A stretch of DNA of 64,000 bases, taken from the IMG/VR virus record IMGVR_UViG_3300029305_011880; one strand, 5' to 3'. The DNA is from an uncultured virus (IMG/VR IMGVR_UViG_3300029305_011880) (taxonomy: Duplodnaviria > Heunggongvirae > Uroviricota > Caudoviricetes). The first letter of the stretch is position 1. Each line of letters opens with the position of its first letter. Below the pieces are notes generated by a model. That model was given only the letters and a program-made list of their open reading frames with translations, searched no databases and was not told the DNA's origin. A program made the position numbers and the translations under genes. Below are positions 16,568-64,000 of the stretch, in pieces.

Positions 16568-17098
16568 TTAGGATGCAATCCATCCAACGAATGTCTGTAG
16601 AATGACGGGAGCGTATAATACTGCGGCATAAACTAGAACTGCAGTAATCATTCCCCATAAACCTTTACCAACCATATCTCCTCTACCGATACTACCGATA
16701 AGAGTGATGAATGCGGCAATGATGAAGATTATGATAGTGAAAGGCTGAACAATTATCTGTAAAAAGTAGATAATTTCGTTGCCCTTCGTGGTAGCCCACT
16801 TAAGAATGTCATTAGTAGAAACGACAGGCATTACGTCGATATATGCATCATGAACAGCTTCTGCATCGCTGATACCAGAATATAGAGCGTCCTTACCATC
16901 AACAGTAGGACCAACGTATTCCTCCCCAGCAGTAGCATCCATACTTCCAGTTGTTGATGTAACATTGGTAGTAGGACTTAGGCTTTCACTATACCAACTT
17001 TCTACATCACTTGCGAAAGCAGGCATTGCACATAGAGAAAATAATATAGTTAAAACGCCTAAGAAAGCGAACATTCTTTTATTTAATTTAGCTAGCAT
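16568..17098 (-). CDS. VirB2/TrbC-like pilin or T4SS channel subunit
   Basis: Signal peptide (PAFA), then two C-terminal hydrophobic helices separated by a short loop; GGAGG RBS before ATG 17098; at the end of the T4SS block. Confidence 0.55.
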   Translation of the reverse strand: MLAKLNKRMFAFLGVLTILFSLCAMPAFASDVESWYSESLSPTTNVTSTTGSMDATAGEEYVGPTVDGKDALYSGISDAEAVHDAYIDVMPVVSTNDILKWATTKGNEIIYFLQIIVQPFTIIIFIIAAFITLIGSIGRGDMVGKGLWGMITAVLVYAAVLYAPVILQTFVGWIAS

Positions 17099-17194
17099 AA
17101 TCAACACCTCCAAGTCTTATTTTTATATTTTACTATTCATCTCTGGAAAATATAATACATTTTTAGAATATTCTTTTCAAAAACATCACATTTC

Positions 17195-17845
17195 TCAATC
17201 TCGGTTATTAAATTTTTTCATAGACACCAAAAAGAATATACAGAACAAAATAACAACAGCAGTAAGAATCATAAAAATCCCAATTACTTTAATGAATTGA
17301 GAATAATCTTTTTCATTTTCTTGAGGAACCAAATCCTCAACATTAATGGTTTCTTGTTTTTCTCCAGTGGAACCATTTATCCCATGAAAACCAAAAGTAA
17401 TAGATGTCATTTCTTCAGAAATAGTAAATTCTTCTTTATCTAATGGCACAATTTGAAACTTGCCACGAGTATCCCCTTTTGCACCACTAGATGTTACAAT
17501 ATAATTACCATATGGTAATTCGTAAACTAGGTTATAATTATCAGAAGCTTCTACGGTTACATAATATTCTAAGTAATTATCCAAATCCATGAAAGAAATA
17601 ACAAAATCATAAGCCTGAAATTCAATTGGCCTATTTTCGAGCACATTTATATTTATTTCTATTAGCCCTTTTTTTTCAGATATGTTTAGTTCATCTCCGT
17701 ATCCTTCCCCCTGAAAATCATTGTAAATAATTTCTCCTTGCTCATACTCTTTATCTCTATCCACCAACATAGAATCCGCAAATACGGATGAACTACAAAA
17801 AACAAAAATCAAAAATGTTAAGAATGGAATAAGCATTTTTTTCAC
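17195..17845 (-). CDS. Hypothetical surface protein (signal peptide and C-terminal TM anchor)
   Basis: GTG start, SVFA cleavage motif, beta-rich middle, C-terminal hydrophobic helix with basic tail. Confidence 0.7.
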   Translation of the reverse strand: MKKMLIPFLTFLIFVFCSSSVFADSMLVDRDKEYEQGEIIYNDFQGEGYGDELNISEKKGLIEININVLENRPIEFQAYDFVISFMDLDNYLEYYVTVEASDNYNLVYELPYGNYIVTSSGAKGDTRGKFQIVPLDKEEFTISEEMTSITFGFHGINGSTGEKQETINVEDLVPQENEKDYSQFIKVIGIFMILTAVVILFCIFFLVSMKKFNNRD

Positions 17846-17924
17846 AAAATATCCCTCCTAATCATATATAATATTAATATTATATTATATACGTATAGCT
17901 TTCATAATAAAGAAAATAACAACA

Positions 17925-17962
17925 AAAATACAGCATGTCTCAAAAGAGACATGCTGTATTTT
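17925..17962 (-). terminator. Intrinsic terminator
   Basis: 17-bp perfect inverted repeat aaaatacagcatgtctc/gagacatgctgtatttt. Confidence 0.8.
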
Positions 17963-17963
17963 A

Positions 17964-20900
17964 TTAATTGACATAATCAGCTCTTAAATACTGGTCAAAA
18001 CCGTTATAGATTTCAAATACAACGCCTTCTTCATTACCTTTATCAGTTGAATGGACATACCACTCTTTACCATCGCTATCAGTATATACATAAATACCAA
18101 TATGTTTTTTCTCTTTGAATGCCCAATCACCAGGCAATATACTAGATTTAGAAATAATCTTTGTATTATCATCGTTTTTAATGTCAGTAACTGTATCCCC
18201 AGATGCGTAATAATGAGTACCAAACGTATTATAAGACACCCAACTTACAAACCCCGAGCAATCTAATCCGTCTTTTGCAACACGTCCAACCCACCAACCT
18301 CCTCCAGGAGAATTATGCCCACAAGTTCTATCATCTCTACCCCAAGATGGATTAACTCCTTTATACGGAGGATGTGAGTGTCCGCCGCCATAGAAATAAG
18401 GGACTCCTCCCACAAGCGACAAGGCATTTCTAAGAATATACTCTCTATCTTGAGATAATGTAGGATGATAAGATTTCACGGTAGCAATAATTGCATCAAT
18501 TTCTGCAGAACTCATTGCCCCTTCAACCAACCCAGCACCTCGAGTCCATTCAGTAGATAGCCAGTAATATGGGTCACATTTTGTATTTTCAGCAGTATTA
18601 TCTAATAATTGGCCAGTCTCCAAGTCTTTTGCTTTAACAAGCACTTCGAAGTGTAAGTGGTCGCCAGTACCAACACCACTATTACCCATAATACCAATTG
18701 GGTCATCAAGAGATAAGCATTTTCCGCTGCCTCCTGCGCTTGCACAGTTAGAAGATATGACATCACCCTTAACAACATTTGGGGTCATAAACATATGGGC
18801 ATATCTAGTAAATATGCCAACTATTTGATATCTCTTACCCGAAGTATCCGTGACAATAGTATTAGCAGGAACGGTATGTTCAATCTCAACCCAATGACCA
18901 TAACCACCATCATCGTATCCGACGTAACTTACTCTTCCTTCTGCAGCAGCAAGAATACCAGGTTTAGTAGTGTAAGCAATATCTACACCATTGTGCATTC
19001 TTATATCTCCATATACAGGATGTACTCTCTTTCCGAACTCAGAGGTTACGTTTAAATCTGTAACAGTTGGGACAGTTGATATTGGAGACTGTAAAGGAAT
19101 TAATGGCGTAATAAATGCAAACTTATAAGATGCATCAACGTCTTTAGAAGTTTTCTTACCTAATTTACTTATTTGAGGATTACCACCCAAGAAACTGTTG
19201 TTTGTTCCTGTTGAATCATCTAATCTTTCTGTAAAGAAGTCCAATAAACTATGTTCATTGGCATACATATAATAATCTTCCTTACCAAAATTAGAAACGT
19301 TTAGAATTAAGGTAGTTACATCATCTCTAGAAGTAGTCATTCTAGGAATATATAGTTCCATACCAGAATTTTGAACTTGGAACATATCTCTCTGGAACGC
19401 AATATTACCAGTTTGTAATCCAAATGAAGCTCCTCCAGTAGCACTTGCACCAGAATAAGACAAACCGAAATTAGTATTCAATTCTGCCGTTGCTAACGAG
19501 GTGTCATAATATCTTGCAATATGTTTAACATAGTCTGGAAACTCACTTGTTTCGTTTCTGTATTTACTATAACAAGAATACCAGTTAGGGTCAGATATCT
19601 TACACTCTGTTCCACTAACCCAACCGTTATATAGAACAGCGGCCAAGAACCCATCATTATTAGTTCTTATCAAATTGTTACTAATTTGAATTATACCGTA
19701 CTCAAAAGCCTTTTCAACATTTCCATATCTCTCATCGTTAGCAAGGAAAGCAGGTATATCCGCCAAAGAAGTAACTACGCTTTCTGGATTTTGCATATTA
19801 ACAACTACTTGCTTACCAGTTAAAGTAGATTCGATTGTCTTAGTACATTTTTCACCTGGTTTAGCATTGTGTCCATCTCCATCACAATGATGGTGTATCT
19901 GTCCTATACCGCCACCGCCGTTATAGCTATTATAAACATTACTATAAACTTCAGTACAAACAGCTGTAGCTCCAGTAGTCCAAGTAATTACACTATCATC
20001 CTTGCATAAACCAGCAAATGCATTACCACTTGATTCTTGTGTAAACATTGCAACCGCCAATGCGACATCAACCTGATATTCAGCACAGAAGGTATCAAAT
20101 AATGGTTTCCACTTAGAATAAACTCTTTGAGCTTCTTCCTTCTTAGTACCAAGAGGAACGCCACTAGCAGCCGCAGGAATTGTGGATGCGTTATTTAATA
20201 CCGTTTTACTACCAGAATCTTTAACATAAGCCAATGTTTCTGTTACGACATCATTTGTATACATAAACATATTAATTTTACTAGCATTCATTCTTACAGA
20301 ATCATCACCTGTTAATTCAGCTAAAATATCCGCAACCTTATTAGCATCATCACCGTTAAACCAGTCTGTATCTCCCTTAAGCTGAACTTTTGTGGCAAAC
20401 GCTTCACCATGGAAATAAGCTAATATAGCATATTTAACATCTCCATACTTTTGAACTAATTTACCAAATTTATTAGATACGTATTTCAGAGCTTTAACTT
20501 TGTCCAAACGTTCATCAGTGGTATCATTAACTGTCAGTGACACATCGTCAAAACAAACGGTATAGTCAGTACCTGGACCACAAGTGACAATTATATCTCC
20601 AGTTGAAATATTGTCAGAGGTTGGAAGATTCCCATCTTTATCAGGATTGTAATTATAGAAAATTACGCCAGGCCCAACATCGGTAAGTCTAAATGTCTTA
20701 GAACTACCATCTTCAAGGCTCAAAGTAACCTCTACCATGTTGGAACTGCTTCCGCCTCCAACCCCAACCGTATTGCAAATATAATTAAACCATTCTGTGT
20801 ATTTAGAATTCTTTAAATGTATACCATCGTTGGTATCACTAGTACTAATATTACCAAGATATGCATTTACATCCATGAAATTAACACCTAATTCACCAGC

Positions 20901-23900
20901 TAGCTTTTCAATTATTTGATTTTTCTTATTAATATCTGCGTTTCTAACCAAATATCCCTCGGATGCTGCTAAAGAATCATTTACCCCAGAAATACTACCA
21001 ATATAAATAGTTGCACCAGGATTTTTAGATTTAACAGTATTCACCAGGTCTTTATAATTACTTTCAAATACTGAATCAGTATTTGTTGCGTCATTCATAC
21101 CAATATTAATAAATACTGTTCCATAATTGGAATAAGATTTAGCTGCATTTTTAGTAGCTACGATACCACGTCCAACTACAGCATCTACTACTGCCCCAGT
21201 TCCATCAAGCAACCCAGTATTCTTTATCCCAACAGTGAGCGAGTCCCCAAGGAACAAAGTATTATAGAAACTGGCTGTTGTACTGGAACTATTTAAATTC
21301 GAGCTACCACCAGTAAGTGTCCCATTTACTGCGTTTTCAATAATTGAACGGTTAGCACTTGTGTCTGCCACTTTTTTATTGTCGTCCAAAATATTTTGAT
21401 TAAGTATGGAAATCATCTTTTGAGGAGCCCTATCAATACTTACCTCAAGCAAACCAGAAATCAACTGAGAAACAGCGGTTGCATTTAAATCGTTACCAAA
21501 CTTCTTAATGGTTTCTTCCCACGCAGGAGTGTTTGCAAGATTATAAATGTCATTACTTAAAACAGCTGTATTCTCAACATGGTTTGTTTTTGTATTAAGA
21601 GTAGAATGATATGCCTCACGTCCTCTAGACATTAAATCGTAGTCACTCTTTACGTCCATAGGAACATAAGTCTCAAAATTCATAATGTAATCATATAAAT
21701 AGCTTTGTGTTTTATTCTTTTCTTCAAAAATGGCATTTTTCTGAGCTTCAGTAGTATCATCAGTCAAAATCAATCTAGAATTCCAACTGTCAAATACCTC
21801 TCCATTAAAATAATAACCTCTTTGTCTAGGAAGAATTTCACGCATTACACCAGAGAAATGTCTGAAGAGAGGAATAGGATAACCATAACTTTCTCTATTA
21901 GCAATAAATAACCCTACGCCAATTTCATCATATTCTTCCTCGTGTATTATGCTAGTACCAGCTTCAAGAGTCAAGGAACTCCAACCATCACTACCACCAA
22001 CAGTAACAGGGTTAGAATTAAATCCAACAATTGCATCTGCGGCTCTCCAGATTTCATATAAGTCGTTTTTAGATTTATCGGAATCGTTTTTCAACGTCAC
22101 AGGATGTTGCAAGCCAGCATCTAAATCAACGCTCATATGTAAGTCGTCTGGTAACCCAACGGAAACATCTATTTTAGTAACTTCTGTTTCTGGCACAACA
22201 TATCCTTTTCTTGCAGTAATATTGGCATTGACGTCTTTAATATTCTGATAATGATTTTTGTTATCACCATCAAACAATCCCCCAGATTTACTTAATGTTA
22301 AATAATCTTCATTGTAATCGTGACTAAAGTCTTTATCAATATCCCCTTTATTTACCTGCCATCCCCAAGACCAATCACTTAAGGAATCATATATCTTCAT
22401 ACCAATATAAACTCTATCACTCAATGTACTAGTAGAATCTAAACTGGAAGCTTTCTCCAAAACCGCCTTTATTTCAGCAGGAGTATCAATGATGTATCCG
22501 TCTTTTGCTGGTAAAACATCTGATACGGTAGCGTAATAGTTATAGTGAGTTGTATAGTAGGGTTGATAACAACTATAATCTTCCCATCCGCAAACTCTAT
22601 CTTCTCCTTCCCCCGTACACTCCCAACTGGAACAACAGTTTGTACACCATTTACTTTCGGAGGTATATTTACAGCTTGTTCCTGCGTCTAAAACTTTAGG
22701 CTTAGCCTCTCCAGTAAACCAAGATACTATTGTCTTCCATACATCCCCATTCAATTTAGTTTGTGCAGTTTCTTCTGTATAGCTTGGACAAGCAGGATAA
22801 CCATTCCAACTACCTTTACTACCACTACCCATATCTTTCACTACGTATTCAACCATTGGAACGTTAAATATATAGTTACTCAAATAATAGTATCTATCTG
22901 CATAAGCTAAACCACTAACTTGTCGGTCACTACTACCGCCACCAATATTAACGATGTCATTTTTGTAAGTGTAATTAAATGTACCCAAGAAAGTAACGGC
23001 TTCATCAATCATGTAAATACGATAAGATTCATTTTCAAGAATCAAATTCATAGGTTGTAAATCTTGACCATATTGATTGTAAAAATCTTTCTTGAATTCC
23101 CCGACAATGTTTTCACCAGCTCCAGCAAAATCAGAACCAATATTTAAGAAGTGCTGGTCAACATTGACTTTGCTTAACCCATCATCTGTATTTTGAATTC
23201 CCAATAATGCAGCAGAACCAGCGACATGAATTTCGGTTACAAACTTACTACCGTCAACAAAGTGTAAAGCCTTAGAAATGATACTATCATCATCTTCAGC
23301 TTTCCAATCAAACCACTCAACATAATACTGAAGAGGGTCTAAAAATTGGACTTGAGTAAAAGTGTTAGCACTTGGGAACAATCCACCAAATATGGTGTCC
23401 CAAACACTTGCAATCCATGTAGGCTCTAAATAAGGAGAGTAAGCATATACCCCATTTAATTTGTCAGGGTCTATAGAATATGTACAAATTTGACTTAAAT
23501 CAGGCCAGTTTTCTTCGCAAACTTTCAAGCATCTGGTCTCTTTTTCTTTAATAACCGATTCTTCTTCAGCCTTTTCTTCTTCGTTTAAGTCTGGATGTAT
23601 TCCCTTTATTTCAGTTTCAGCTTCAGTTTTACATCTTCTTTCGCAATCAAAAAGACCTTCATTATAATATGCACCAGTTGCTTGTGCGTTAAGCAAGCAT
23701 TGCTTTAAACCCTCGATGTCATCTTCGTCTATATGGTCACATTTGTCATATGCGCTTTCACAAATATTAGTAGTTTTATTATTTTTTACAACGTCAGAGT
23801 TTTTAATTGCCGAGTCTAACTCATCTTTAGAAATTAATGGGAACCCATCAATCCCTTCATTTACAGGACCAACATATATACCCTCCATATTTCTGCCAGC

Positions 23901-26900
23901 AACAATTTTTACCAGCTCGGCTCTAATATCTTCATATTTTTTACTAGAAGCTTTTTCTTCTGCCAAATCCATCTCATAATCAGTAGCTGCATATTGTAGA
24001 GAAACAATGTTTTGCGCAAGTTCCATTAAATCTTCGACAGGAATTGGGGTGCTTCTTAGAGCCTCTGTTAAAGAAGGATATCTATCCAAAAGCTCTTTTG
24101 GATAATAACCATTACCAGCTTTACCAAAATTATCGGAAATGGTTTTATCCCCAATGATTGTCTCAAACGACTTTTCAAATGCACTCTTACCTACGTAAGT
24201 TTCATCCATAAATACGCCAGTTTGATAAACAACTCTCATGTCTTGGATATAAGACAGTACAGAACCAAGACCATAGTCCCTTACGGATTTAGTTTCATAT
24301 GGCAAATAATCGCCTCTATATGTTTTATATGTAACTCTTCCTTCAATGGAATAATCAATTCCGCTGGTTATATTTGTATGAATGCTACCAGAATTTGTAG
24401 GTCTATAAGTTTTGGCATAGCTATCCCAAGCTTCAGTAGTATTTCTCCAATCTCCGCCTTCATTATAAGCCTTCAAAGCATCAACTAAAGAAACGGTATT
24501 TCCATCATGCCCCTCAACAGCAGTACCTTTACTTGCAGCATGAGAATCTAAATCGTTAATATAAGCTTCCCAACTTACAGGTCCGCTATCGACTATATCT
24601 CCAGAAGCATCATAACTATATCTAAAATCATCTGGACCATAATGCACACCATTTGTCAAATAATCCGTAATCTTAGTAATTAAATTACCTGTAGAATATA
24701 CGGGCAACTCAAGAGAAGCTTCTCCTTTAACTCTTTCAAGAACTTGGCTACTATAATCGCTAGCTACGTTTGAAATTTTCCAACCATAACCAGAATTATT
24801 ATTGTTGTTGTTACATTTACCACTTTGGTCTTGACATAATGCGCTTTGACCAGAAATTATGGATGTAGGAACATAAGTAGTACTTACGGTCCTTTGACTA
24901 TCAAGAGCCTTAACTGTATCTAAAGTCTTTTTGTAAACCGTCGTGCTGTTCCATTTATCTACGACCACTTCTTTTAATCCAAAAATATCTCTATATTGAG
25001 CTTTCTTAAACGCTAAATCAAGTTCCGTTTCAGTGTAATATTTATAATCCCAAGCGACACCGTATTCGCCAGTTTCAATAATATAATCGTCATATGCTAA
25101 CAAAAGATGAAACATTGACTCAGAAGAAATATTAATTTCTGCTTCAGCATCTTCGCCAGTAACTAGATTTGTAATGCTTTGTCCAAATTCTTTCCATTTT
25201 GCCCATGTATAAGCATAGCCACTAGCGCCAGTATATCTTCGAATCACGGAACAATGTCTCTGATTAAAAGGCAATTTAGCATCATTTTCATAGTCTTCTG
25301 GCTCACATGTAGTAACAGTATTTCCTCTATGATTTACAAATTCACAAGAACCTCCAGATGCAGGAATCGCACTGTCAGTACTATAATCGAAATATAAATC
25401 TTCGTCTCTTGCAGGAGGACATCTGTTAAGGTCTACATTTGCAAAATCTTCAAAACCAGAGAAGTATTCTGGGAAGAATCTATAAGAATCTCTTACACTC
25501 TTCTTTTGCACAAACGTTTTATTGAAGAGAACCCTAGAATTTAACTGCATATCACCATATTCATCAAATACAGATACTAATTGCATATGTCTAATAGGAT
25601 ATTTATTATATTCACAACGAACTTTAACCCATCCATCAATGTATGAATCACTGGAGTTACCATTTTCAGGGTTAATATAAACAATTGATTTATCTCCGTC
25701 ACAAATCAAAGATGTTGTATCAACTTTAACTGAACCAGAACTAATATTTAATCTTGTATATGGTCCCTCGAAAAATGTTTTATAGTTTTGATTTGTAATG
25801 GTTGTACCCATATGTTCATTAAATGGATTGTTTCCATCATCTGTTTTTGATTTACCCGTATCAGGACTATATCTGGTATCAATAACCCTCCAATACAACT
25901 TGATAGCAGATTTTTTATCTACGGTGCTTCCGTCTTCATATTCGAATTCTTCCGTGACCGTAGCATATTTACCGATATTACCCCAAGACATTTGTTTAGC
26001 TAGCTCATTATTAGCCTCCGACCAATAATAATTATTCTTTTGTTCAACAACGTAATCATAAACAATATGACTTGGTTCAGACTTGATAATACCTTCCAAC
26101 CAATCTTTCTCATAATAAACACTAGATATATTGTTAATATCTCTTAATGTAACTCTTTGTGTTACATAGACATATGGAGAACCAATATTTTCTTTTTTAC
26201 CAGTCTCCTGAATACGATAGAAATCATTAACAAAAGCAACAGGCTTAACAAATGCTTCGGGATAAGTTATTGTCTCAAGATTACTAAATTCACCAAATAA
26301 AATACGATTCATTTCAGACAACAAAGTTTCAGAAATTTGGAAAGTAGTTTCTCTGTTATAATAATCTCTAAAAGTTTCATTAACAGTATTTAAACTAGTC
26401 TTCAAGTCTTTTTCGTCCACATTAATACCAATGATTTTTGGTAACTTCATATATTTTAATGCATTCTTATTAGCATCAGAATAGATATATCTTTCATCAA
26501 GAGAACCCAAGCCTATCCAATTTCGAGTCATATTGTAGTAGTTTAAATCCATTTGGTCTAGGTCATCTTGTACTAAACCCCAATCATATAGTTTATTTAC
26601 AATCTTTGCATATGTGTCGGTTACTATATTCATACTTTCAGGATTCAAATCCCTTAGATTAAACACTTGATAATAAGATGTTTCTGATACAAGTTGCATA
26701 TAAGCCTTTCTTAACTCGTTTGTGTTTTGAGCATCCATATAAATAGAAGTATCAGAATTCATTTCTTCGAATTTGTCGAAATCAATATTTATTTTCCCAC
26801 TAAAAGGTCCATTTAACGAACCAAATACCCCCATAACAGCGTTCAACATCGTTCCTATGCAAACAACACAAATAACTACTATCAAGAAATCAGAAGAAGC

Positions 26901-27152: not shown

Positions 27153-27256
27153 ATATCAACCCTCCTATATAAATTATTTGCAATTTGAACATAATTACAT
27201 ACTCTTATTATATTTGAATCTATCCAGTTTTAAAACGCATTCAACGCTTAGAATAA

Positions 27257-27286: not shown

Positions 27287-27299
27287 GTTTTAGTCTATA

Positions 27300-33763: not shown

Positions 33764-34102
33764 TTATTTTTTCTTTTCTAAATAAGACAACTCAAATTCT
33801 TCCGCTTCTACACGATAATTTGGTAGCTTTTTAATTACTGTTTTGTGATATTTTTTCAATCGCAAATATGTATATAATGGTAACCCCTTTATTTTTACTA
33901 AAGCGAATACTCCGCCAATTGGAACAAAAATTACTACTCCAGCAATGATAGATGCTGTTCCTAAAAATGCGAATGTTGCAAATGAAAATATTGCAGCGGC
34001 ACCCACACCAGCAAGAATGCAAATTAATTGCGCACCTGTCAATATACCACCAACGATTTTTTCTTTTTCGGAAATATCAGGTGGAACACTATATACAGCC
34101 AT
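33764..34102 (-). CDS. PrgI-family (VirB3-like) protein
   Basis: YSVPPDISEKEKIVGGILTGAQL start, two TM helices, GLPLYTYL; upstream of virB4. Confidence 0.8.
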   Translation of the reverse strand: MAVYSVPPDISEKEKIVGGILTGAQLICILAGVGAAAIFSFATFAFLGTASIIAGVVIFVPIGGVFALVKIKGLPLYTYLRLKKYHKTVIKKLPNYRVEAEEFELSYLEKKK

Positions 34103-42985: not shown

Positions 42986-43121
42986 GTTTATTCTTGCTCC
43001 TTTCAATTTCTATGAACCTATATTTCATTATATTATTTAAATGGTTATCTTATATCACAAAACTAAAAACTTAATCACATAAACATCCCCCATCTATTTA
43101 TTTAGATGAGGGATGAAATAA

Positions 43122-50603: not shown

Positions 50604-50636
50604 GTTTTAAATTATCACGACTATCAATGATTGATA

Positions 50637-56600: not shown

Positions 56601-59600
56601 GCCTACACTGCCAGGCTTGCAGATTCTGCATTGCTCAGTAGATGCAAACTTGGAAGGAGATGCTGCTTTTGCAGTTCCCGTAGGAGCAACAAGAGTGAAT
56701 TCAATATTGACTGTTGGGAAGAGAGCAGTGTTTGCAAACTTCAAACCAGCATCAACATATTTTGCACCTCTACTAGATGTTGTCTTGAATCCAACATAGT
56801 TAGTGTATTTATAAATCTTACCAACTTCAACATTATTCATTTCGCCCTCAAGGGAAATTTCATTAAAATCGGTAATATCTCTAACTTCAATATATTCGCA
56901 TCTAGGATTACCGCCATCAGTAACGAAGTTATAAGGAGGAGCGCAAAGGTCGTTTTGATAACTATCAAGTTCTTCCTTCACACAAACGCCATTTACCAAA
57001 TGATACCCCATGTCGCACCAAGAAGCAGCCTCTCTCTTACAGAAATACTCATTGCCAATCTTATAAACGATACCATCGTTTGTACAACTTACAGGAGCAA
57101 CTTGAGCTTCACACTTGGCCATATCTTCGTTATAAACAGTACCTACAGCACACATTATGTTTTCCTGCAATGTGCACTTATTAGTATTAACATCAAATGC
57201 AATGCCATTTGTACATGTAGGAATAATCTTAAGTCTAGCTTCCATAGAGCAAACGCCACTATTAGCAGTTACAGACTTAATCTTAGTAATCTTAATTGCG
57301 CCATTACCAGAATGTCCATTTTCATATGTACCATCTACACCAGTGAAGGAAACGCTACCATCAAACATGTATCCATTAATAACGCCACCGACATAACCAG
57401 AACCACCAGCACCACCAGTTCCGTGATATCCACCAGCGGCACCACCGTAGTAGCCGCCACCACCGCCACCAGTGTAAGAACTGTAGTAGCTTCCGCCTTG
57501 TCCCCAAGACCCACCTACGGCCCAACCACTGTTAGTAGTACCTCCACCAACTTGTGTACCACCAGTAGAATAGTAGCTAGTAGACCAGTTTGCATGAGCA
57601 TTTGATTGGCCACCTTGATAACCGCCACCATATCCACCATGCGAAATATAAGAGTTAACCGCATGACCACCACCGCCACCACCAGCAACGATAATACGGT
57701 TACCTAAACCAGTACCACCCATTCTAATATCAGTAGCACCACCGCCACCACCAGAATAGCAGTAAGCGTTGCCGCCACCGTTCCAACCACCAGCAGGATA
57801 ATTACAACTTCCATTGTCACTTGCACCCATACCACCAACATATAAATACAAAGTAGTTCTTTCTGTGAGCGTCAAGAAACCAGCAGCATAACCGCCTTTA
57901 CCACCAATACCAACATAAGAAGAATTACTATAACCTTGACCACCCTGAGCACCCCAAACCTCTAGTTTGTAACTACCAGGGTCAAGAGTTACTTCTTCAT
58001 ATTTACCTTTATAAGAATAAGAAGTAGAACTTTCTTCAATATATGTAGGAGTAATAGTTGCAACATTATTGTTTCTTATATACAACTCTGTAACACCAGC
58101 ATAGTTGCTAGACATTGCCCAACCGACAGTTGGATGTGTTGGGTCAATCATTATTGCTATATTACTATAAGCTCCTCCATTAACGCGGAGACCTGCATTG
58201 TGCATTTCAGACATTGTTATAGTCTTAACCCATTTCCCATTAGCAAGGTCATAAACAACCAAGGAGTGCCCACAACCACAATCAGTAGCTTCGCTGAGAT
58301 AGATGTGATTATTTACTTTATCTATGTATGCAGCGCCACCAGTATAAGACGAGTAAGAATAATTTGCTCCACTCAAAGTTCCGATATATGTAATAGCTTT
58401 AGTAGAAACATTGAATTTATACAAATATTCACTACTGCCATTACCTCTGCCATCTACGAAGTAAACTGTATTTTCTCCATCCCATGCAGCACGTCCGTAA
58501 TTACCAAACGCTCTGTCTGTATTGTATTGAGTTCTGCCAGAAATGGTATGATTGGATTCATTAATAGTCCATTCAAAAATTGCAGAATGGCTACGAGACC
58601 AACCAACTAACTTTGTTACACCATCTTTGTAATAGGTTGTATAAGCAGTAGGTGTGGAACTGGTAGAAATATATTGAATGTAACTATCATTGTTATACCA
58701 GTTAGTAGTACCAACATAGGAACCAATTGTGCCATCAGGATTTCTAGTATAAACCATAATGTACTGCATATTACTATGCATTAAATATAGATAGTTTTGA
58801 CCGATTAACACGTCACCAGCCCACCAACCAGTATTTGTAGTTATATTTCTAGAAACACTGAAGTCAGTAGCATTTAAAGGACCATTAGTTGTTTGATATG
58901 TAATATTATCGCTCAATCCTCCAAGCAATACATCGTTATAACCCAAATTGGTAATTCTAGCAAAACCATGGTCAGAGTGACCAGTTTCGTAACCACCATA
59001 AGGAGCAACGAAAGATGTATCACCTGCAAGAGAAACTTTATTTGTTAATTGATTACCGACATAACCAGACCCGCCACCAGAGCCGCCACCTTCACCGCCA
59101 CCACCACCGTAGTAGCCGCCGCCACCACCACCACCAGATTCACCAGTGCTGTTATAGTGAGCACCTTGGCCGAAGGAGCCACGAGTTCCTGCAGCGCTCT
59201 GACTAGCGTTATAGTTTGTATTATATCCACCAACGCTGGTGTAACCACCACCATGTCCAGCAGCTTCATTATCTTCACCAGAACCACCGCCACCACCAGC
59301 GACAACAAGAATGGAGTCTCTACTATTACCTAAACTACTTAATAATCCATCCTTTGTAGCAATATGAGTAGCGCCACCACCAGAACCGCCAAATTCGCCA
59401 CCGTCATGATAAGCATTACCACCACCGTTAAATCCGCCAGATACCAATCCAGAAGAATGATAACTTCCGTTATTACCCTGACCCATACCACCAACATAAA
59501 CGTATAATGTGGTTTCAGTATCAAAGGTAATTACGCCAGAAGAATAACCACCTTTACCAAAGTTCCAAGAGGTATAAGAAGTTGTACCGTCAGCACCCTG

Positions 59601-62600
59601 ACCACCTCTAGCACCCCAAGTTTCTAACTGATAAGTACCAGGCTTGAGAGTTATTGATTGACCATATCCAGTGTAATAGAAATCATTGACTTGCTGATTG
59701 TTAATGCCTCCACCAATATTACTACCTCCAGAGATAGTAGTAATTCTAGCATAACCATTACCAGCATGACCAGTTTCGTTTCCTCCAGTAGGAGAAACAA
59801 AAGAAGTATTACCAGCATATGTTTGAGCACTACTCAAATAGTAAGAACTATTCAATGTGCATCCAGAAGGATAACTACCAGCAGTAGAAGCAGTATACAC
59901 ATAACCAGAGCCACCACCATTACCAGAATAGGAAGATGCTCCGTTAGTTAATCCTCCACCACCGTACCAACCACCACCAGCTCCGCCTGTTGGATATGGA
60001 CTTGCAGCTAATATATTAGCACCCTGTCCAAACGAGCCACCTGAACCAGCAGACGTTTGACCGCCAGGATAACTACCACCAGCGGTTGCACCGCCACCAT
60101 ATCCTGTACTACCAGCATGACAACCGCCACCGCCACCACCAGCAACGATTACACGAGAATAGAGACTAGTGCTACCAATACGAATATCAGTACCACCACC
60201 GCCACCACCATTATCACTTCTGTTTTGGTTACCGCTACCACCACCGTTCCAACCACCAGTAACAGCGCTGCCAGGATTTCCGCCTACATACACAAAAACA
60301 TCAGTATTTTCAGTAAGAGTAATAGTTCCAACAGAATAACCACCCTTACCACCAGCGGAATTAGAGTATCCAGTACCACCCTGAGCTCCCCAGGTTTCTA
60401 GTTTATAAGTGCCAGGAGCTAAAGTCACTTTTTGTGCAGCACCAGTATACGAGAAGTCCATAACAGGTGGGTTAATAATTGTTGGGGCATTATTCCCCCC
60501 ATCATCAATTTCACCCTTATCCGTAATTGTTCCATCGGAACAAACTTCATAAACAACATTCTTTGTGTGATAACCAGTAATTCTAGCATAACCATTACCA
60601 GCATGACCAGTTTCGTTTCCTCCACCAGGAGCGACGAAAGAAGTATTACCAGCATATGTGGAACCTACCGCATAAGCAGTATTTACCCAACCAGAACCAC
60701 CAGAACCACCCTGACAGTCATTTTCAGAAGCGCTATATGCATTGTAAGGAGTATTACCACCATAGTAGCCACCACCAGCGGCGCCACCATTATGGCAAGA
60801 ACCACCAACACCAAGCATATAACCAGAACTCTGAGTACCAGCAGAACTACCAGCACTACCACCAGAAGTACCACCACCGTAACCACCAGCTTCATCGTCT
60901 TCGCCCATACCACCGCCACCACCAGCAACGACGATACGATTACTTAGATTTACGAAATCAACACTATCGATTACAGCAGTACCAGAACCACCATTAGTAA
61001 TTGTAAATCCAATTTTATCCCAATTTTCAAGAGAACGATAGAACATTTGCACGCTAGTATCGCTTCTTACAATCTTAATAAATGAACCATTTCCGCTAAC
61101 CCAGCTACTGCCATTATAGAAAGATACGCCAGAAGTCATACCGCTTAAACCAGTACCTGTAATATCAATTCTCCATATATTCCCATATGCACTACCAGGC
61201 AAACCGTTATAACCAGTATGTAGATGTACTCTACCACTTGCAGGAAGTGTCCATTTTGTACCGCTAGCGGTTGCTCCATTGTACAGACCAGGAGCACCTA
61301 AGTTTTTGCCAGCCTGAGCTGTGTGACCAATAGCTATATCAGTAGCACCGCCACCACCATTACCAGGCTCACCAGTCTGGCTACCGTAAGCGTCGCCACC
61401 ACCGTTCCAACCACCAGCAGCTAATCCGCCACCGTTACCCTTACCTTGGCCACCAACGCCAACGTAAAGAACAGTGTCTTGTGTTATTGTCATAGTGGCA
61501 GTAGTATAACCACCCTTACCACTACTTGTAGTTTGAGAACCACTCTGATTTAAAGTACCACCCTGAGCACCCCAAACTTCGAGTGTATATGTGCCAGGCT
61601 CAAGAGTTATTTTTTGCATCTTACCAGTATAACTGAAAGTCTTATTTATATTAACTCTTTCAGTTCTAGTAATTTCTTCACAAGTAGCCTCTGCACCACA
61701 TTTATTTATATATCCGCTATTTACATATAGCTCTAATCCACTCTTGTTGCCAAGAGAAACATCTTTGGCATGAACTAAACATACACCAAGTTCCTTACTT
61801 CCTTCATTCTGAAGAATGTAGTAACCAAGAGTAGCAGTTGCAGTTCCAGTAATTTTAATTTGACCATTACCAGATTTCTTGGCAGTTTGTACACTTCCTC
61901 CAGTTATGTAAGAAGTGTTATACCAACCAGTAGCTGCATTAGTAGTTGAACTCTGAGCTTCAACGCCACCAATTGCAGTTCCACCAGAATCAGCCAATGT
62001 TCCCGCAGCACCAGTACTGTAATAGCTACCGCCACCAGCACCACCAGTACCACGACCACCAGGATTATATGTATAAGTTTTACCACCACCGCCACCGCCA
62101 GTAATTACAGCAGTACCATTTACACGAATAGTGGAATAACCACCACCACCGCCACCAAGTTCGTTATTGCCATTGTCATTACCGTCAGTATCATTACCAC
62201 CCTTACCACCACCTGGCCAACCACCAGCGTTTCCAGTAGATGAATAGAAAGAGGTCTGCTGTTTACCAGCGCCCATACCACCAACCAATATTTCTAAATT
62301 AGAATTAGAGGTTAGTTTTAATGTACCTGTAGCATATCCTCCCAAACCACCAGCAGCACTTCTAGAAGGACCACCCTGAGCACCCCAAACCTCAACTGTA
62401 TATGTACCAGCCAATAAACTCTTTGTTACGGATGCACCAGTGTAGTTGTATGTTTCAGTAGTTGTTACACTTCCAGTCTTAGAACCACTTTGTGCAGTTA
62501 AACCACCAGCACTATAAAGGGTGATTCTAGCATAGCCATTACCAGTATGACCTTGTTCACCTGCCCAAGAAGTGTTACCAATATTATTAGTAGCCTTAAA

Positions 62601-64000
62601 CCAATCATTGCCACTAAGCGTTATCTTGTTAATTCCAGTTACGGAACTTAAATTGTTTGTACCAGCAGCAGAAGAAACGGCAGTAGCAAGAATGTTGTCG
62701 TAACCGAAGCCATTCTTATATGCAGTAGTTCCTCTAGCACTGTTTTGAGTAGCAGTATGGATATAAACTGTATCGCCTTCCTTTAAGTCAGCCATACCAG
62801 CAGTATAACCACCCTTGCCAGTACCATTAGAAGCACCCCACAATTCAATATAATACTTACCATCAACAGGAACGGTAAATACAGAAGTAGATGTGCCATG
62901 TTCAAAGTTAACATAATCACCAACTCTGAAAGAAGCAAGAGTTACAGTTTCATTATCCTTGGGAACAATATGAGAACAGTCTAACTCATAACTATCAGGT
63001 AAGGAAGTAAGGTCACTAGCATATCCATAGCATCTACCTTTATAAAGAGTAAATCCAGTAGGACATACAGGGTCTAAATCCTTAACACATTTATAAGTTG
63101 GTTTATAATCAGCAGCCTCATTACCAATAGCAATATTATCAATAGTAATAGTACCCTTATTAACGTCAGCAAGATAGAATCTTAAAGACTTAATGTTGCT
63201 GTTCCACATACCACCACTCATATCAACGGTATAGATATAATAAGTAACATCGCTATTAGGCTCAATTTCAAAGGATACAGACTTAGCTTCATTGTACCCA
63301 GTAGAATTAGCTGTTGTGTAATAAATCTTAGCAGTATCACTAATACTTGCATTCTTCATCTTGATTTGAATTAGATTATTCTTTAATGGGTCTAAATTCA
63401 AACCAGTGAGTTCAATATATCCATCACCGCTATTTAAATCGTAAGCAATTGTAGAATCGCTATCTTGTCTAAAGTTGCTAACACCACTAGCAGTGAATTT
63501 ACCGAAGTCGCCATTGCCACGAGCAAAACTATAAGTTAAGTTAGCAGCAAGCTTATTAGCTTCGGTAACATCAGTTAGAGTATAACCGCCACCACAGAAT
63601 GCGTCGCTGTACTCTAAGCAAACTTTCTTTTCAGCATCCCAATAACCATCTTCGCAGATAGCATTAGAACCATCATAGGATACGCAGACATTACCTTCAA
63701 GTTCAAAACCATCAGGACAGTGAGTGACACCAGAACCAGTTTCTACACACTTAAATTCATTAAAGTCAAATACGTAACCAGAATTACAGCTTCTATTATA
63801 AGAAACGACGTGGATTGCTTTGCATTTATTATCTTCACGAATATAACCAGTAGGACAAGTCATAGACTCCAAATCCATTTCAGGAATATAGACCTCACCA
63901 GTTGTTTCATTAATTAAATATAGCTCAGGACCAAACTTTTCTCCCAATGTCATAAACCCACCAGTTTCACTTCCAAGGGAAGAAAGGTTTGTACCAACAG
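50637..64000 (-). CDS. Giant (>4450 aa, 5'-truncated by window) Cys-rich adhesin-like protein with seven glycine-rich domains, TraN-like CPxGY repeats, CBM-like and propeller-like modules
   Basis: Frame open to base 64000; seven LEVWGAQGG...GKGGY-type units, most with IVAGGGGG and GHxGNGYARIT; CPTGYIREDNKC-type repeats; Trp/Cys-rich C-terminal third. Confidence 0.85.
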   Translation of the reverse strand, partial: VGTNLSSLGSETGGFMTLGEKFGPELYLINETTGEVYIPEMDLESMTCPTGYIREDNKCKAIHVVSYNRSCNSGYVFDFNEFKCVETGSGVTHCPDGFELEGNVCVSYDGSNAICEDGYWDAEKKVCLEYSDAFCGGGYTLTDVTEANKLAANLTYSFARGNGDFGKFTASGVSNFRQDSDSTIAYDLNSGDGYIELTGLNLDPLKNNLIQIKMKNASISDTAKIYYTTANSTGYNEAKSVSFEIEPNSDVTYYIYTVDMSGGMWNSNIKSLRFYLADVNKGTITIDNIAIGNEAADYKPTYKCVKDLDPVCPTGFTLYKGRCYGYASDLTSLPDSYELDCSHIVPKDNETVTLASFRVGDYVNFEHGTSTSVFTVPVDGKYYIELWGASNGTGKGGYTAGMADLKEGDTVYIHTATQNSARGTTAYKNGFGYDNILATAVSSAAGTNNLSSVTGINKITLSGNDWFKATNNIGNTSWAGEQGHTGNGYARITLYSAGGLTAQSGSKTGSVTTTETYNYTGASVTKSLLAGTYTVEVWGAQGGPSRSAAGGLGGYATGTLKLTSNSNLEILVGGMGAGKQQTSFYSSTGNAGGWPGGGKGGNDTDGNDNGNNELGGGGGGYSTIRVNGTAVITGGGGGGKTYTYNPGGRGTGGAGGGSYYSTGAAGTLADSGGTAIGGVEAQSSTTNAATGWYNTSYITGGSVQTAKKSGNGQIKITGTATATLGYYILQNEGSKELGVCLVHAKDVSLGNKSGLELYVNSGYINKCGAEATCEEITRTERVNINKTFSYTGKMQKITLEPGTYTLEVWGAQGGTLNQSGSQTTSSGKGGYTTATMTITQDTVLYVGVGGQGKGNGGGLAAGGWNGGGDAYGSQTGEPGNGGGGATDIAIGHTAQAGKNLGAPGLYNGATASGTKWTLPASGRVHLHTGYNGLPGSAYGNIWRIDITGTGLSGMTSGVSFYNGSSWVSGNGSFIKIVRSDTSVQMFYRSLENWDKIGFTITNGGSGTAVIDSVDFVNLSNRIVVAGGGGGMGEDDEAGGYGGGTSGGSAGSSAGTQSSGYMLGVGGSCHNGGAAGGGYYGGNTPYNAYSASENDCQGGSGGSGWVNTAYAVGSTYAGNTSFVAPGGGNETGHAGNGYARITGYHTKNVVYEVCSDGTITDKGEIDDGGNNAPTIINPPVMDFSYTGAAQKVTLAPGTYKLETWGAQGGTGYSNSAGGKGGYSVGTITLTENTDVFVYVGGNPGSAVTGGWNGGGSGNQNRSDNGGGGGGTDIRIGSTSLYSRVIVAGGGGGGCHAGSTGYGGGATAGGSYPGGQTSAGSGGSFGQGANILAASPYPTGGAGGGWYGGGGLTNGASSYSGNGGGSGYVYTASTAGSYPSGCTLNSSYYLSSAQTYAGNTSFVSPTGGNETGHAGNGYARITTISGGSNIGGGINNQQVNDFYYTGYGQSITLKPGTYQLETWGARGGQGADGTTSYTSWNFGKGGYSSGVITFDTETTLYVYVGGMGQGNNGSYHSSGLVSGGFNGGGNAYHDGGEFGGSGGGATHIATKDGLLSSLGNSRDSILVVAGGGGGSGEDNEAAGHGGGYTSVGGYNTNYNASQSAAGTRGSFGQGAHYNSTGESGGGGGGGYYGGGGGEGGGSGGGSGYVGNQLTNKVSLAGDTSFVAPYGGYETGHSDHGFARITNLGYNDVLLGGLSDNITYQTTNGPLNATDFSVSRNITTNTGWWAGDVLIGQNYLYLMHSNMQYIMVYTRNPDGTIGSYVGTTNWYNNDSYIQYISTSSTPTAYTTYYKDGVTKLVGWSRSHSAIFEWTINESNHTISGRTQYNTDRAFGNYGRAAWDGENTVYFVDGRGNGSSEYLYKFNVSTKAITYIGTLSGANYSYSSYTGGAAYIDKVNNHIYLSEATDCGCGHSLVVYDLANGKWVKTITMSEMHNAGLRVNGGAYSNIAIMIDPTHPTVGWAMSSNYAGVTELYIRNNNVATITPTYIEESSTSYSYKGKYEEVTLDPGSYKLEVWGAQGGQGYSNSSYVGIGGKGGYAAGFLTLTERTTLYLYVGGMGASDNGSCNYPAGGWNGGGNAYCYSGGGGGATDIRMGGTGLGNRIIVAGGGGGGHAVNSYISHGGYGGGYQGGQSNAHANWSTSYYSTGGTQVGGGTTNSGWAVGGSWGQGGSYYSSYTGGGGGGYYGGAAGGYHGTGGAGGSGYVGGVINGYMFDGSVSFTGVDGTYENGHSGNGAIKITKIKSVTANSGVCSMEARLKIIPTCTNGIAFDVNTNKCTLQENIMCAVGTVYNEDMAKCEAQVAPVSCTNDGIVYKIGNEYFCKREAASWCDMGYHLVNGVCVKEELDSYQNDLCAPPYNFVTDGGNPRCEYIEVRDITDFNEISLEGEMNNVEVGKIYKYTNYVGFKTTSSRGAKYVDAGLKFANTALFPTVNIEFTLVAPTGTAKAASPSKFASTEQCRICKPGSVGDVDTCANVNYERDCGVLNGDTYQTYKIVIPATDIGGNVINGGLESVFAGNRQYYNSRSYMTSTTPDTSMFLNTSDGDQVNASEFLWSMWQGMDKGFILDSDFSTMWSEIDFYFQFNEDSFCYYNAPSNEEVAFGTKKTCVPYSFTAGQEKFITVEDGVNKLNMEEDENGETYVKNIFISSVIGAPNSFVDPEFSEISKNKVSLADAYMDNTKFTDDRSDFISGFKLAPDGDVYIDRFEVLNATTLEVVFAAEARTLDRCINGDELRKGSTAKYTTSTTLDPVHGGYQLPYDNGVARAEKDKVYCNTYDPVSQTHNLDTNVNYIVKIYTKYEHIKESNIAGNTPASMSYISVDIQHLENSASDSVFNRIIPSMENASVSEKMTIRGGVKSPDGTCAAIRHKSVVNVSAMSMLQGKPEENKCVVSTAATDAIQRFYFSTNNYMLTVSEPNAAAIIPANGLKNKSVRNGSYNATISGEAATINAYATWDNFTFNYSLGPGPNVETTLIMRCYEIGSNTTTVDFITRDGACVIIDTDKYDRCSLFAKIENIENKDVPISTNIRVVTDTDVNKVLDVNQGDLYNADGSNRFFLTNAATYGGHETFKGTGGANETGHAGHGYARITNIDTGSVVKSFSYTGDVQNMKLTAGNYKLEVWGAQGGSKWGTGGKGGYSVGNLTINRTVDIAVYVGGHPADNSLTGGWNGGGNGGEAPSVQVYRSPGGGATDIRINGTAWTDRIIVAGGGGGGAKYAVDQRGGPGGGSTAHFNYYSTWGNKQEFQSQNYGASQTESCRASVDSYGYTVTCSAGSLGQGAGGCGGGYYGGGYYSCANRVYSGSGGSGYVRISTTQNKLTADQPEAEVLIKANVEGSIQAIATHNSADNDGYADVDWTNNTDANCWVVGNYTNYSIRNLNVDPFKIWVDTDSNGVLANSGNVTVNFTGTYELVKERDTDKVNPNKNLDIKYVLKDANGNPVTGSDKCTFTPIAHVMNVGTGGKVLITFNGTCNLQFKKSDIENMMSFTVMINGGKTGAHKFTEAVYDDNEDMVSVPVDDKCVGEDCMPVCDDLICTRRNTWGVNFDFLYTFDRNIIPYQTSQQANLSWIDYDVGTVSGSTQDREYHTTIGTGNVNRAPDDYMAFKSDKLDYTELCTDYKSNSKACWRYEMNVSHNVTYYLWSEAKTSVYTTHEVLTSQGVAGKCTPQNSTFVNGSETYGDNNHGASGENHNFADSTETDRSVNVCHGYTEAPNTTKCDVVTDWWGNEICETWVETFSPDADSGLKPNDYIPYAYFQDYTLEDGAGMSPTTKTDHIVMKNQTQTNLNQGAAHNGWAQTKTMDVCDVMSHRDVSYSCETYFVYGTDANGRSFAQTTKNGSGVCYAADSSDNTRTCVWENETMSPPEEVWWNDSGATCYRKHADWDCLDYFGWADSGWVQNSGNETSGSCQWWQTGTITVTDSGITDDTCHHMNYSNCTGEINSCVSCDEYYNGSCIAESPKCHSHTGSCEYHWWTDGDYVDWTLTWTDGHSESHSDSKDCGGASTSTYTRYHNESSTPYNVAEHMTKRCGSGEIANDDVYCYEYYNDSVSLELGTPRCVRWRTEEYQEIKYYTTNSGDSGNSWVSRTHSNPTEIWQYTCDTTEPKVAYPNDKVIMKSYSEEIVATSWIKTVSSGDKWIQLNFEGDTPPEARPRSGEWFDLKFVTTYTTDRATRPGAAPRTDRPFLLDFYNNYHNILGGLGEDNATTYPPTGYNHFGVNDTGKTAIGDGKTMTPNSFSDVINNEDYGYCDVRPAEPYGCSYQAGTNQFMYPNENNSTTTQGHVGAEWTTNQEGNGVCYYGPDNKTVWQKFEFGNDYYTGLIICTGDKDTKRCEIENALATAWLVESSSKCMNVIDGLCVQWQIEWVTPVRKDATGNQRNGFYLEKGWDTTKNLVFDLRGSKFNAVGQYEKELLGENLLASRNNDSFFEEVGKPVIPLCVCQTTKTMGDPNDYKWGSTEWEVE
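59739..60659 (-). repeat. Near-identical intragenic direct repeat at the ends of glycine-rich domains 3 and 4
   Basis: 49-bp identical block at 59739-59787 and 60576-60624, each followed by an identical aaagaagtattaccagcatatgt. Confidence 0.85.

Follow-up and report, generated by a model that had tools for sequence, protein, structure and literature searches.

A type IV secretion gene cluster with thioredoxin, sigma factor and ClpX companions, and two very large cysteine-rich exported proteins, on an element from animal faecal metagenomes

The locus described here raises the question of whether a conjugation-type apparatus of Gram-positive (monoderm) cells can be accompanied by disulfide-handling proteins and, if so, which exported proteins these would serve. 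It lies on a 64,000-nt stretch of an uncultured virus record (IMG/VR IMGVR_UViG_3300029305_011880), hereafter the window, in which a run of type IV secretion system (T4SS) genes and the gene for a giant secreted protein fall within positions 16,568-64,000. The initial annotation saw in it an F-like kit built around a giant adhesin, and as stated this was not borne out. The account that we favour, with modest confidence, is that of a monoderm T4SS belonging to a megaplasmid clade, with a thioredoxin, a sigma factor and in part ClpX as its companions, and with the giant as a lineage-specific accessory.

Window proteins were scanned against Pfam and NCBIfam at E ≤ 0.01, and selected pieces at E ≤ 1, with the curated cut-offs applied. 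Together with the listing of open reading frames (ORFs), the scans delineated a co-directional run on the minus strand that proceeds from 40273 to 16568 and encodes p396 (a protein of 396 amino acids (aa)), the thioredoxin, the sigma factor, ClpX, a pilin-like protein, a LOG-family protein, PrgI, the N-terminal part of VirB4 (VirB4N), the VirB4 ATPase, a VirB6-like protein, a cell-wall hydrolase, a 216-aa protein and a second pilin-like protein (Table 1). PrgI, the VirB4 ATPase and the multi-domain exported hydrolase, all named by the initial annotation, were confirmed by family matches over the Pfam cut-offs; for the ATPase these were PF19044 P-loop_TraG (78.9 bits) and PF12846 (40.7 bits). 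The best NCBIfam match of VirB4 was the CD1110-family VirB4 (E 8.7e-75), whose 252.4 bits lie below the 325-bit cut-off, and the score against the Mbov_0397 equivalog (241.6 bits) was also below the cut-off (590). The initial annotation listed VirB4 simply by name. The ATPase is present, but the protein is divided over two ORFs, and the separate N-terminal one (32647-33744) matches positions 100-281 of the NCBIfam Mbov_0397 VirB4 (E 1.3e-9). Given that the same division into an N-terminal ORF of about 300-365 aa and an ATPase of about 640-670 aa was found in every relative examined (loci L001-L020), the split is ancestral and does not reflect a frameshift.

The remaining core genes are less securely named. 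In the VirB6-like protein, an extracellular domain of some 430 aa is combined with a signal or anchor segment, with 5-6 hydrophobic segments and with a tail of low complexity, and the protein is 25-37% identical to the gene that follows VirB4 in 18 of the 23 relatives' loci. Its hydrophobic segments and its conserved position are what the earlier VirB6 label can draw on, and no Pfam or NCBIfam family matched it. The two proteins that had been called VirB2-like pilins show pilin-like architecture and synteny, but neither reached a family cut-off. The first stayed below those of PF18895 and Mbov_0395, though its architecture fits by hydropathy, and its alignment (A1) revealed a lineage-specific insert of about 55 aa that carries two cysteines. 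The second had no Pfam or NCBIfam match; its homologues (27-38% identity) were found in 9 of the 23 loci. In L001-L006, L009 and L015 the homologue follows the hydrolase, and in L017 and L020 it is close to the T4SS.

The relatives of this VirB4 were sought by tblastn among 72,556 plasmids. Eleven records of 127-722 kb were retrieved at 51-65% identity, the next best match being at 32.6%, and they came from Aneurinibacillus, Brevibacillus, two Paenibacillus species (three records), Geobacillus, B. thuringiensis Bt407, Jeotgalibacillus, two Clostridioides and C. perfringens. Annotation tables were read for five of the 11 megaplasmids, and the window proteins were compared with the relatives by tblastn. 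The genes followed one order: a small pilin-like protein, PrgI, VirB4N, the VirB4 ATPase (VirB4C), then a protein of some 900-1,100 aa, followed by an M23/NlpC hydrolase and another small membrane protein. The synteny of pilin-like, PrgI, VirB4N, VirB4C, VirB6-like and second pilin-like genes was kept in L001-L006 and L009. Upstream, four of the five carried a sigma-70 factor and, on the opposite strand, a thioredoxin of the TlpA family, frequently with ClpX as well, and further upstream stood a Tad-type pilus operon, a helix-turn-helix (HTH) regulator and a replication-relaxation (Replic_Relax) family gene. An alignment-based VirB4 scan of species-representative genomes added 19 more loci; a scan of the same genomes with the single VirB4 protein yielded no relative. 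Within 10-kb flanks, thioredoxin, sigma factor and ClpX were present in Bacillus sp. M6-12 and on the Aneurinibacillus plasmid and absent from five gut metagenome-assembled genomes (MAGs), namely three Oscillospiraceae, a Peptoniphilus and a Clostridia bacterium. Near their T4SS, these gut MAG relatives had UvrD-, RecD2- and RecJ-like genes, YdjM, TraX, Replic_Relax and surface proteins of S-layer-homology (SLH) and SpaA type, and adhesins of other types than the giant stood beside the T4SS in L017 (an SLH protein and a 15-domain SpaA protein) and L011 (SLH, sortase and SpaA).

The CxxC thioredoxin noted in the initial annotation proved to be membrane-anchored through an N-terminal hydrophobic segment and to be a recurrent neighbour of this VirB4 clade, present within 10-20 kb of VirB4 in 6 of the 12 relatives with flanks (L001, L002, L004, L005, L006 and L009), which span Bacilli and Clostridia. 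The CGYC motif (residues 151-154) and the cis-proline Pro215 were invariant in an alignment (A3) of the window protein with four plasmid homologues, and all six relatives' thioredoxins have a lipobox and exactly one CxxC (CSFC, CGAC, CENC, CPTC and, in two, CPAC). Among the 72,556 plasmids, tblastn with the thioredoxin matched only five, all of them related megaplasmids. The sigma factor was found in the same six relatives, always together with the thioredoxin, and ClpX was in the same cluster in 5 of the 12. In the window and, of these relatives, in L002, L004, L006 and L009, a full-length ClpX and a dedicated sigma-70 factor lie inside the T4SS cluster, a feature conserved between megaplasmids of Bacilli and Clostridia. 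Compared with the Protein Data Bank (PDB), the thioredoxin family profile matched Etrx (4hqz, 2yp6; E 1e-19), ResA (E 7.5e-17), StoA, TlpA and CcmG/DsbE. Etrx, ResA, StoA, TlpA and CcmG act in reducing or isomerising pathways and are not of the DsbA/BdbD oxidase type. Since the thioredoxin is kept where no cysteine-rich giant was seen, it appears to be part of the T4SS neighbourhood and not to have been brought in for the giant. Judged from its sequence, it is an extracytoplasmic thiol-disulfide oxidoreductase belonging to this neighbourhood. A literature search on thioredoxins in Gram-positive conjugation gave nothing relevant, subscription-journal papers and supplements being outside its reach.

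The gene next to the thioredoxin, p396, had been described as a thioredoxin-like neighbour without CxxC. The lack of the motif stands, but the likeness to thioredoxins emerged solely in profile-profile comparison, at a probability of 53-69%. When compared by hhalign with the thioredoxin family, a shallow p396 alignment scored 68.6% (E 4.6e-5, 54 columns) and a deeper one 53.3% (E 1.3e-4), the latter covering the entire fold in 128 columns; the segment FTEGDKE there takes the position of the CxxC stretch. Residues ~79-211 possibly form the thioredoxin-like fold, without CxxC or cis-proline, and none of the p396 relatives has a cysteine at the position aligned to the active site. The p396 profile had no PDB match at E ≤ 10, and the AlphaFold model was too poor for a fold search, at a predicted local distance difference test (pLDDT) score of 48. 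The family is small: four close homologues in a collection of 5.8 billion proteins and nine relatives among 1.84 billion representatives, with none at the megaplasmid relatives' loci by tblastn. Four ORFs upstream of the relatives' thioredoxin (A6) had no signal peptide and, judged by eye, no likeness to p396. On these comparisons, p396 is somewhat more probably thioredoxin-like than not so.

Within the window lineage, the T4SS hydrolase is itself a very large exported protein. It occupies the place of the relatives' M23/SLT hydrolases and comprises an N-terminal membrane anchor, cysteine-rich regions, GDSL, SLT-like, M23 and NlpC/P60 domains; the GDSL (46.1 bits), M23 (43.8 bits) and NlpC/P60 (27.7 bits) matches exceeded their Pfam cut-offs and the SLT match was weak. 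The database gene call for this protein, P0056, is 3,019 aa long and starts 43 codons downstream of the 3,062-aa ORF start. Its family (P0056-P0063; 2,760-3,100 aa, 43-63% identity) has 27-41 cysteines per protein, and cysteine is its most conserved residue (75%), with 20 of the 37 cysteine columns invariant; more remote members reach 88 cysteines. The megaplasmid relatives' hydrolases are of 860-1,150 aa with 1-9 cysteines. A pair of cysteines 16-18 residues apart was observed after the SLT region in the hydrolases of L002, L005, L006, L009 and L011, and L011 has this pair yet no thioredoxin nearby. Considering that the window lineage's own exported T4SS parts are cysteine-rich, the thioredoxin is linked to them more directly than to the distant giant. 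From the sequences, both the hydrolase and the giant are plausible candidate clients of the thioredoxin.

The protein of more than 4,450 aa reported in the initial annotation was confirmed, as an ORF that runs on past the end of the window. The full-length giant comprises 5,381 aa with 107 cysteines, a signal peptide and a cysteine-rich C-terminal region, and no LPXTG or C-terminal anchor was found in it. PF12810 (ALK_LTK_GRD) was the sole Pfam family in it at E ≤ 0.01, covering seven stretches (E 2.8e-183; 607.5 bits against a cut-off of 24.5). These stretches and a jelly-roll resembling carbohydrate-binding modules (CBMs) are what had been called adhesin-like domains. CPxGY/F repeats had been said to flank them: clusters of cysteine hairpins do flank the block, but the strict motif (CPxGY/F-x(3-8)-C) occurs only three times in the window part. 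In the complete giant, 11 hairpins of the looser form C-x(1-3)-G-[YFWIT]-x(4-9)-C were counted, nine of them in clusters before and after the main glycine-rich domain block. The model built for the hairpin/jelly-roll/hairpin region averaged a pLDDT of 72; the sandwich reached about 85, the hairpins 50-70. Among the best fold matches listed for the jelly-roll were CBM11, 28, 29, 4 and 6 and Eph receptor ligand-binding domains. A comparison of the cysteine-repeat stalk with TraN had been proposed, and it showed no match: no TraN chain was among the best fold matches listed for the region, the hairpins being modelled at the low pLDDT given above, and no TraN family matched the giant at E ≤ 0.01 or its pieces at E ≤ 1. 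In an alignment of the giant with five homologues (42-50% identity), cysteine was conserved at 92%, against 23-68% for other residues. Because 78 of the 89 aligned cysteine columns are invariant, the giant's cysteines are very probably structural, that is, predicted to form disulfides.

The distribution of the giant differs from that of the thioredoxin. No match was obtained for the giant by phmmer against the PDB, for its C-terminal third by tblastn against the 72,556 plasmids, or for its alignment against viral contigs (0 relatives); two parts compared with the ESM Atlas gave no usable match, and a literature search for PF12810 in bacteria gave nothing relevant. PF12810 was found in none of the five genomes behind the gut MAG relatives and in none of five megaplasmid records, a phage positive control being recovered at E 4.3e-47. 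In two further genomes it occurred in cysteine-poor proteins 100-390 kb from the T4SS: one match about 390 kb away on the contig taken to hold the Bacillus M6-12 T4SS, and three matches 100-130 kb away on the presumed Aneurinibacillus plasmid. The latter lie among 13 secreted proteins of 540-1,200 aa that form an array and of which the three with PF12810 have 0-2 cysteines and the rest 0-6; the array (L029, NZ_CP116888.1 236000-276000) was also seen to adjoin a second A24 prepilin peptidase and an AAA ATPase. The co-occurrence of giant and VirB4 clade on which the initial annotation had staked its case was accordingly not found, and the giant is not a companion of the clade as a whole. PF12810 giants with type IX secretion system (T9SS) tails, cadherin-like or dockerin domains were present in Bacilli, Erysipelothrix and Bacteroidales MAGs. 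On the metagenome contig L030, a giant homologue of 40% identity lies directly beside a homologue (69% identity) of the window's AAA ATPase, and this retained pairing indicates that the giant is a stable resident of this element lineage. We infer that, most probably, it is an adhesin or a glycan-binding protein of the surface, peculiar to this lineage, and not a core T4SS component.

Compared with described monoderm T4SSs (CD1110 and Mbov_0397; the PrgK, TcpG and TipB hydrolases), the cluster is alike in PrgI, in the best matches of VirB4, in its hydrolase domains and in its pilin-like proteins. It differs in that VirB4 stays below both equivalog cut-offs and is split in two genes, that the hydrolase reaches 3,062 aa with 41 cysteines and an added GDSL domain, and that a sigma factor, ClpX, a LOG protein and a thioredoxin join the cluster. 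The closest likeness is to the megaplasmids P. polymyxa pSC2, Bt407 BTB_502p, pJFP838A, C. difficile BI1 and pGspE55-1 and those of Aneurinibacillus, Brevibacillus and Jeotgalibacillus; in these, however, the thioredoxin is a lipoprotein encoded on the opposite strand beside Tad-pilus genes, whereas the window shows no Tad genes, and neither p396 nor a cysteine-rich giant was found in them. PF12810 proteins are also known as 'glycine rich protein' from C. difficile phage tail regions, beside tail-fibre genes. Unlike in those phage proteins, the domain here is built into a secreted protein of 5,381 aa that also has predicted disulfide hairpins and a CBM-like module.

Several observations weigh against the account of a T4SS with a thioredoxin and a sigma factor as companions. 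The thioredoxin barely exceeds its Pfam cut-off (23.8 against 23.5 bits), and it was not seen near VirB4 in L003, L011, L016, L017, L018 and L020, that is, in half of the 12 relatives, among them Bt407, examined to 20 kb, and all five relatives from gut MAGs, examined to 10 kb. No clade-wide conserved cysteine pair that would mark a common client of the thioredoxin was found in the pilin-like proteins, the Tad proteins or the hydrolases. The solved relatives of the thioredoxin are enzymes of reductive pathways, and the family scans revealed no DsbB-, VKOR- or CcdA-like redox partner in the window; the proposal that the system brings its own oxidative folding machinery is not upheld by these results. 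The same solved relatives would fit a thioredoxin that is a housekeeping-type passenger, engaged in methionine-sulfoxide repair as Etrx is, in cytochrome c maturation as ResA is or in sporulation as StoA is, with no role in secretion, and the megaplasmids are rich in housekeeping-like genes (ClpX, SecA, NrdD, RecG, RecJ). We regard this as distinctly unlikely, considering that the gene keeps a fixed position between the Tad-pilus and sigma/T4SS genes in six relatives of two classes and that neither the relatives' tables nor the window annotation place an Msr, CcdA or cytochrome-maturation gene next to it. The conjugative function of the clade, for its part, is a putative one, read from its genes; MOB-suite calls the related plasmids non-mobilizable, and the Pfam and NCBIfam scans found neither relaxase nor coupling protein in the 64-kb window. 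These points would suit a VirB4 cluster that exports proteins, takes up or releases DNA or performs some other task of a phage-plasmid-like element, as would the placing of pCDBI1 among 'probable phages and megaplasmids' in the available part of a C. difficile survey (PMC6807378). Such a cluster is nevertheless very unlikely. In the relatives, Replic_Relax genes, an annotated coupling protein (T4CP; in pGspE55-1), Tad-type pilus genes, TraX and single-strand DNA enzymes form a conjugation context next to the cluster, and a PHROG scan of 18 window proteins returned no structural match, only AAA-ATPase families and an SLH-type match to an endolysin family.

A further alternative stays closer to the F system. 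In it, the giant would be a mating-pair stabiliser, a functional analogue of TraN, and the thioredoxin and its CxxC-less neighbour would fold it as TrbB and TraF do. The initial annotation had recounted F correctly: according to the available text of PMC11315126, TrbB has a CXXC and TraF does not, and TraN, TraU and TraH contain 22, 11 and 6 cysteines. Shared with F-type systems is the joint presence of a CxxC thioredoxin-fold protein, a possible CxxC-less one and cysteine-rich exported transfer proteins. The giant and the T4SS lie on the same strand of the same element, the CxxC protein and the CxxC-less, possibly thioredoxin-like protein adjoin, and the extreme cysteine conservation of the giant and its retention in the related element L030 also speak for the idea. 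A monoderm precedent is provided by pXO16 of B. thuringiensis sv. israelensis, which likewise combines a very large plasmid, an atypical T4SS and a separate surface-protein locus. In the accessible text of its review (PMC9673590), it has two ATPases and the hydrolase TipB, a tip transfer locus and a separate agr aggregation locus with no recognised relaxase, and the large surface proteins of the agr region promote mating aggregates and aid transfer but are not required; that text makes no mention of a thioredoxin. The 11 plasmids whose VirB4 exceeds 50% identity do not include pXO16, whose presence in the collection was not checked. What speaks against a TraN analogue is that the thioredoxin is conserved in relatives without such a giant. 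The giant (starting at 50637) is moreover separated from the end of p396 (40273) by about 10 kb and seven ORFs, three of them on the opposite strand: beyond p396 follow an alpha/beta hydrolase (+), RecJ, YdjM, a 295-aa ORF (+), the AAA+ ATPase (+) and the SLH protein. The PF12810 proteins of a related megaplasmid are nearly free of cysteine, and PF12810 giants are widespread with other anchors in unrelated gut taxa. No sequence match to TrbB, TraF or TraN was found; the TrbB and TraF families matched neither 38241-38987 nor 39083-40273 at E ≤ 0.01, nor p396 at E ≤ 1. The thioredoxin groups with the TlpA/ResA/Etrx type, the domain make-up of the giant differs from that of TraN, and there is no outer membrane or periplasm here. 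The giant is also about nine times as long as TraN. Collectively, a TraN-like role for the giant appears unlikely, and the parallel with F is at best a functional analogy, one of logic and not of descent.

If the favoured account of a clade T4SS with thioredoxin and sigma factor companions holds, the sigma factor would switch on the transfer genes, and the thioredoxin would manage the thiol/disulfide state of exported parts outside the membrane, where isomerisation or reduction is as likely as oxidation. In the window lineage, the exported proteins have grown very large and cysteine-rich, the hydrolase to 3,062 aa and the giant to 5,381 aa, and the CxxC-less, possibly thioredoxin-like paralogue p396 stands beside the thioredoxin. 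The neighbouring SLH protein could tether the giant to the wall, and the giant may aid cell-cell contact. That 932-aa SLH protein is, from its sequence, a possible candidate for a wall anchor, and its gene is absent from L030 beside the giant homologue.

Table 1. Features of the window
Feature	Coordinates	Strand	Basis
Second pilin-like small membrane protein, 181 aa	16568..17113	(-)	signal peptide + C-terminal hydrophobic hairpin
216-aa protein, signal peptide + C-terminal membrane anchor	17195..17845	(-)	hydropathy
T4SS cell-wall hydrolase, 3,062-aa ORF, 41 Cys	17964..27152	(-)	Pfam
VirB6-like polytopic membrane protein, 1,070 aa	27300..30512	(-)	hydropathy + synteny
VirB4 ATPase, C-terminal P-loop part, 664 aa	30638..32632	(-)	Pfam, NCBIfam
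VirB4 N-terminal part, separate membrane-anchored ORF, 365 aa	32647..33744	(-)	NCBIfam
PrgI (VirB3-like)	33764..34102	(-)	PF12666, 43.5 bits vs cut-off 27
LOG/SLOG-family protein, between pilin-like gene and PrgI	34254..34847	(-)	PF03641 E 2.7e-35; TIGR00730 161 bits
First pilin-like protein, 187 aa	35234..35797	(-)	PF18895 22.7 bits (cut-off 26.6); Mbov_0395 31.1 (cut-off 40)
Element-encoded ClpX	36031..37215	(-)	NF003745, 438.8 bits vs cut-off 359
Sigma-70 family factor, SigE/SigK-like	37230..38060	(-)	below equivalog cut-offs
Membrane-anchored extracytoplasmic thioredoxin-family protein, CGYC, 248 aa	38241..38987	(-)	Pfam, A3 alignment
p396, 396-aa membrane-anchored protein	39083..40273	(-)	hhalign
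RecJ-like exonuclease + YdjM-family membrane protein	41282..43694	(-)	Pfam/NCBIfam
AAA+ ATPase, CDC48/FtsH-like, syntenic neighbour of giant gene	45904..47532	(+)	Pfam/NCBIfam; L030 synteny
932-aa secreted protein with S-layer-homology domains	47585..50383	(-)	PF00395, 60.8 bits
Giant secreted protein, last 4,453 of 5,381 aa in window	50637..64000	(-)	Pfam, homologues, model

Among the other genes of the run, the 216-aa protein had no homologue in the relatives' loci, and the LOG gene was not at the corresponding place in the relatives; on pJFP838A, an annotated SLOG family protein was observed about 18 kb downstream of VirB4. RecJ or YdjM also stand beside the T4SS in L017, L018 and L020, where RecJ, YdjM, UvrD-like and RecD2-like helicases and TraX recur (L017 18108-19787, L018 18466-20193, L020 15643-21707). 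This recurrence beside the T4SS of gut MAG relatives suggests a conserved DNA-processing gene set. Other peculiarities were noted on the relatives' plasmids. On pJFP838A (L004 21847-26008), the VirB6-like gene appears as two ORFs with an HNH endonuclease gene between them; immediately downstream of the T4SS cluster of the C. difficile BI1 plasmid (L001 28794-31286) lie a SAVED-domain gene and a DncV-like cyclase, by annotation a pair of the cyclic oligonucleotide-based antiphage signalling system (CBASS) type; and the Aneurinibacillus plasmid NZ_CP116888.1 (L013, L009) has an apparent second partial copy of the cluster, from the sigma factor to VirB4N, with a truncated VirB4 of residues 30-321 only.

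The left flank of the window (1-16516) mixes housekeeping-type genes with ORFs without family match and includes MgsA, an amidase, NrdD/NrdG, a DnaJ-domain protein and RecG. The G+C content was 28-37% in this flank, 31-39% in the T4SS region and 36-44% in the giant gene, where the higher value is due to glycine codons. The T4SS stretch was complete in six animal faecal metagenome runs and partial in others, and the giant gene was found on five contigs, the longest of 297,466 bp; the VirB4 alignment met a single relative, at 30%, among viral contigs. The best explanation is that the window is most likely part of a large extrachromosomal-type element found in animal faecal metagenomes. Its anaerobic ribonucleotide reductase genes would fit an anaerobic host, and the more specific assignment to an anaerobic Clostridium was not substantiated.

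The finding is partly new, and what stands out are the thioredoxin, sigma factor and, in part, ClpX companions of a monoderm T4SS and, in this lineage, the two very large exported proteins predicted to be rich in disulfides. Gram-positive conjugation is far less understood than that of Gram-negative bacteria, and the megaplasmids of Bacillus, Paenibacillus, Clostridioides and C. perfringens that share the cluster are listed as non-mobilizable and are unstudied. Two of these plasmids were called novel or unique, with the cluster left undescribed in the accessible text of the papers on them (PMC4747519, PMC3569317). For these elements, the conserved module that unites sigma factor, thioredoxin and T4SS, and in many cases ClpX, provides a hypothesis of how they move and how their movement is switched on. 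It is conceivable, as a tentative and rather doubtful extension, that the clade independently recruited a surface thiol-disulfide oxidoreductase into its transfer apparatus, as F did with TrbB, and that the gut lineage extended this to a thioredoxin pair, a multi-disulfide hydrolase and a mating-contact adhesin. Were that true, it would be the first case of a monoderm conjugation system that carries its own machinery for handling disulfides, and this in an anaerobic habitat. To our knowledge, Firmicutes generally avoid cysteine in exported proteins. If so, this element, whose two families of exported proteins exceed 3,000 aa and conserve cysteine above every other residue, would be a natural case for studying how disulfides are made or edited outside monoderm gut cells.

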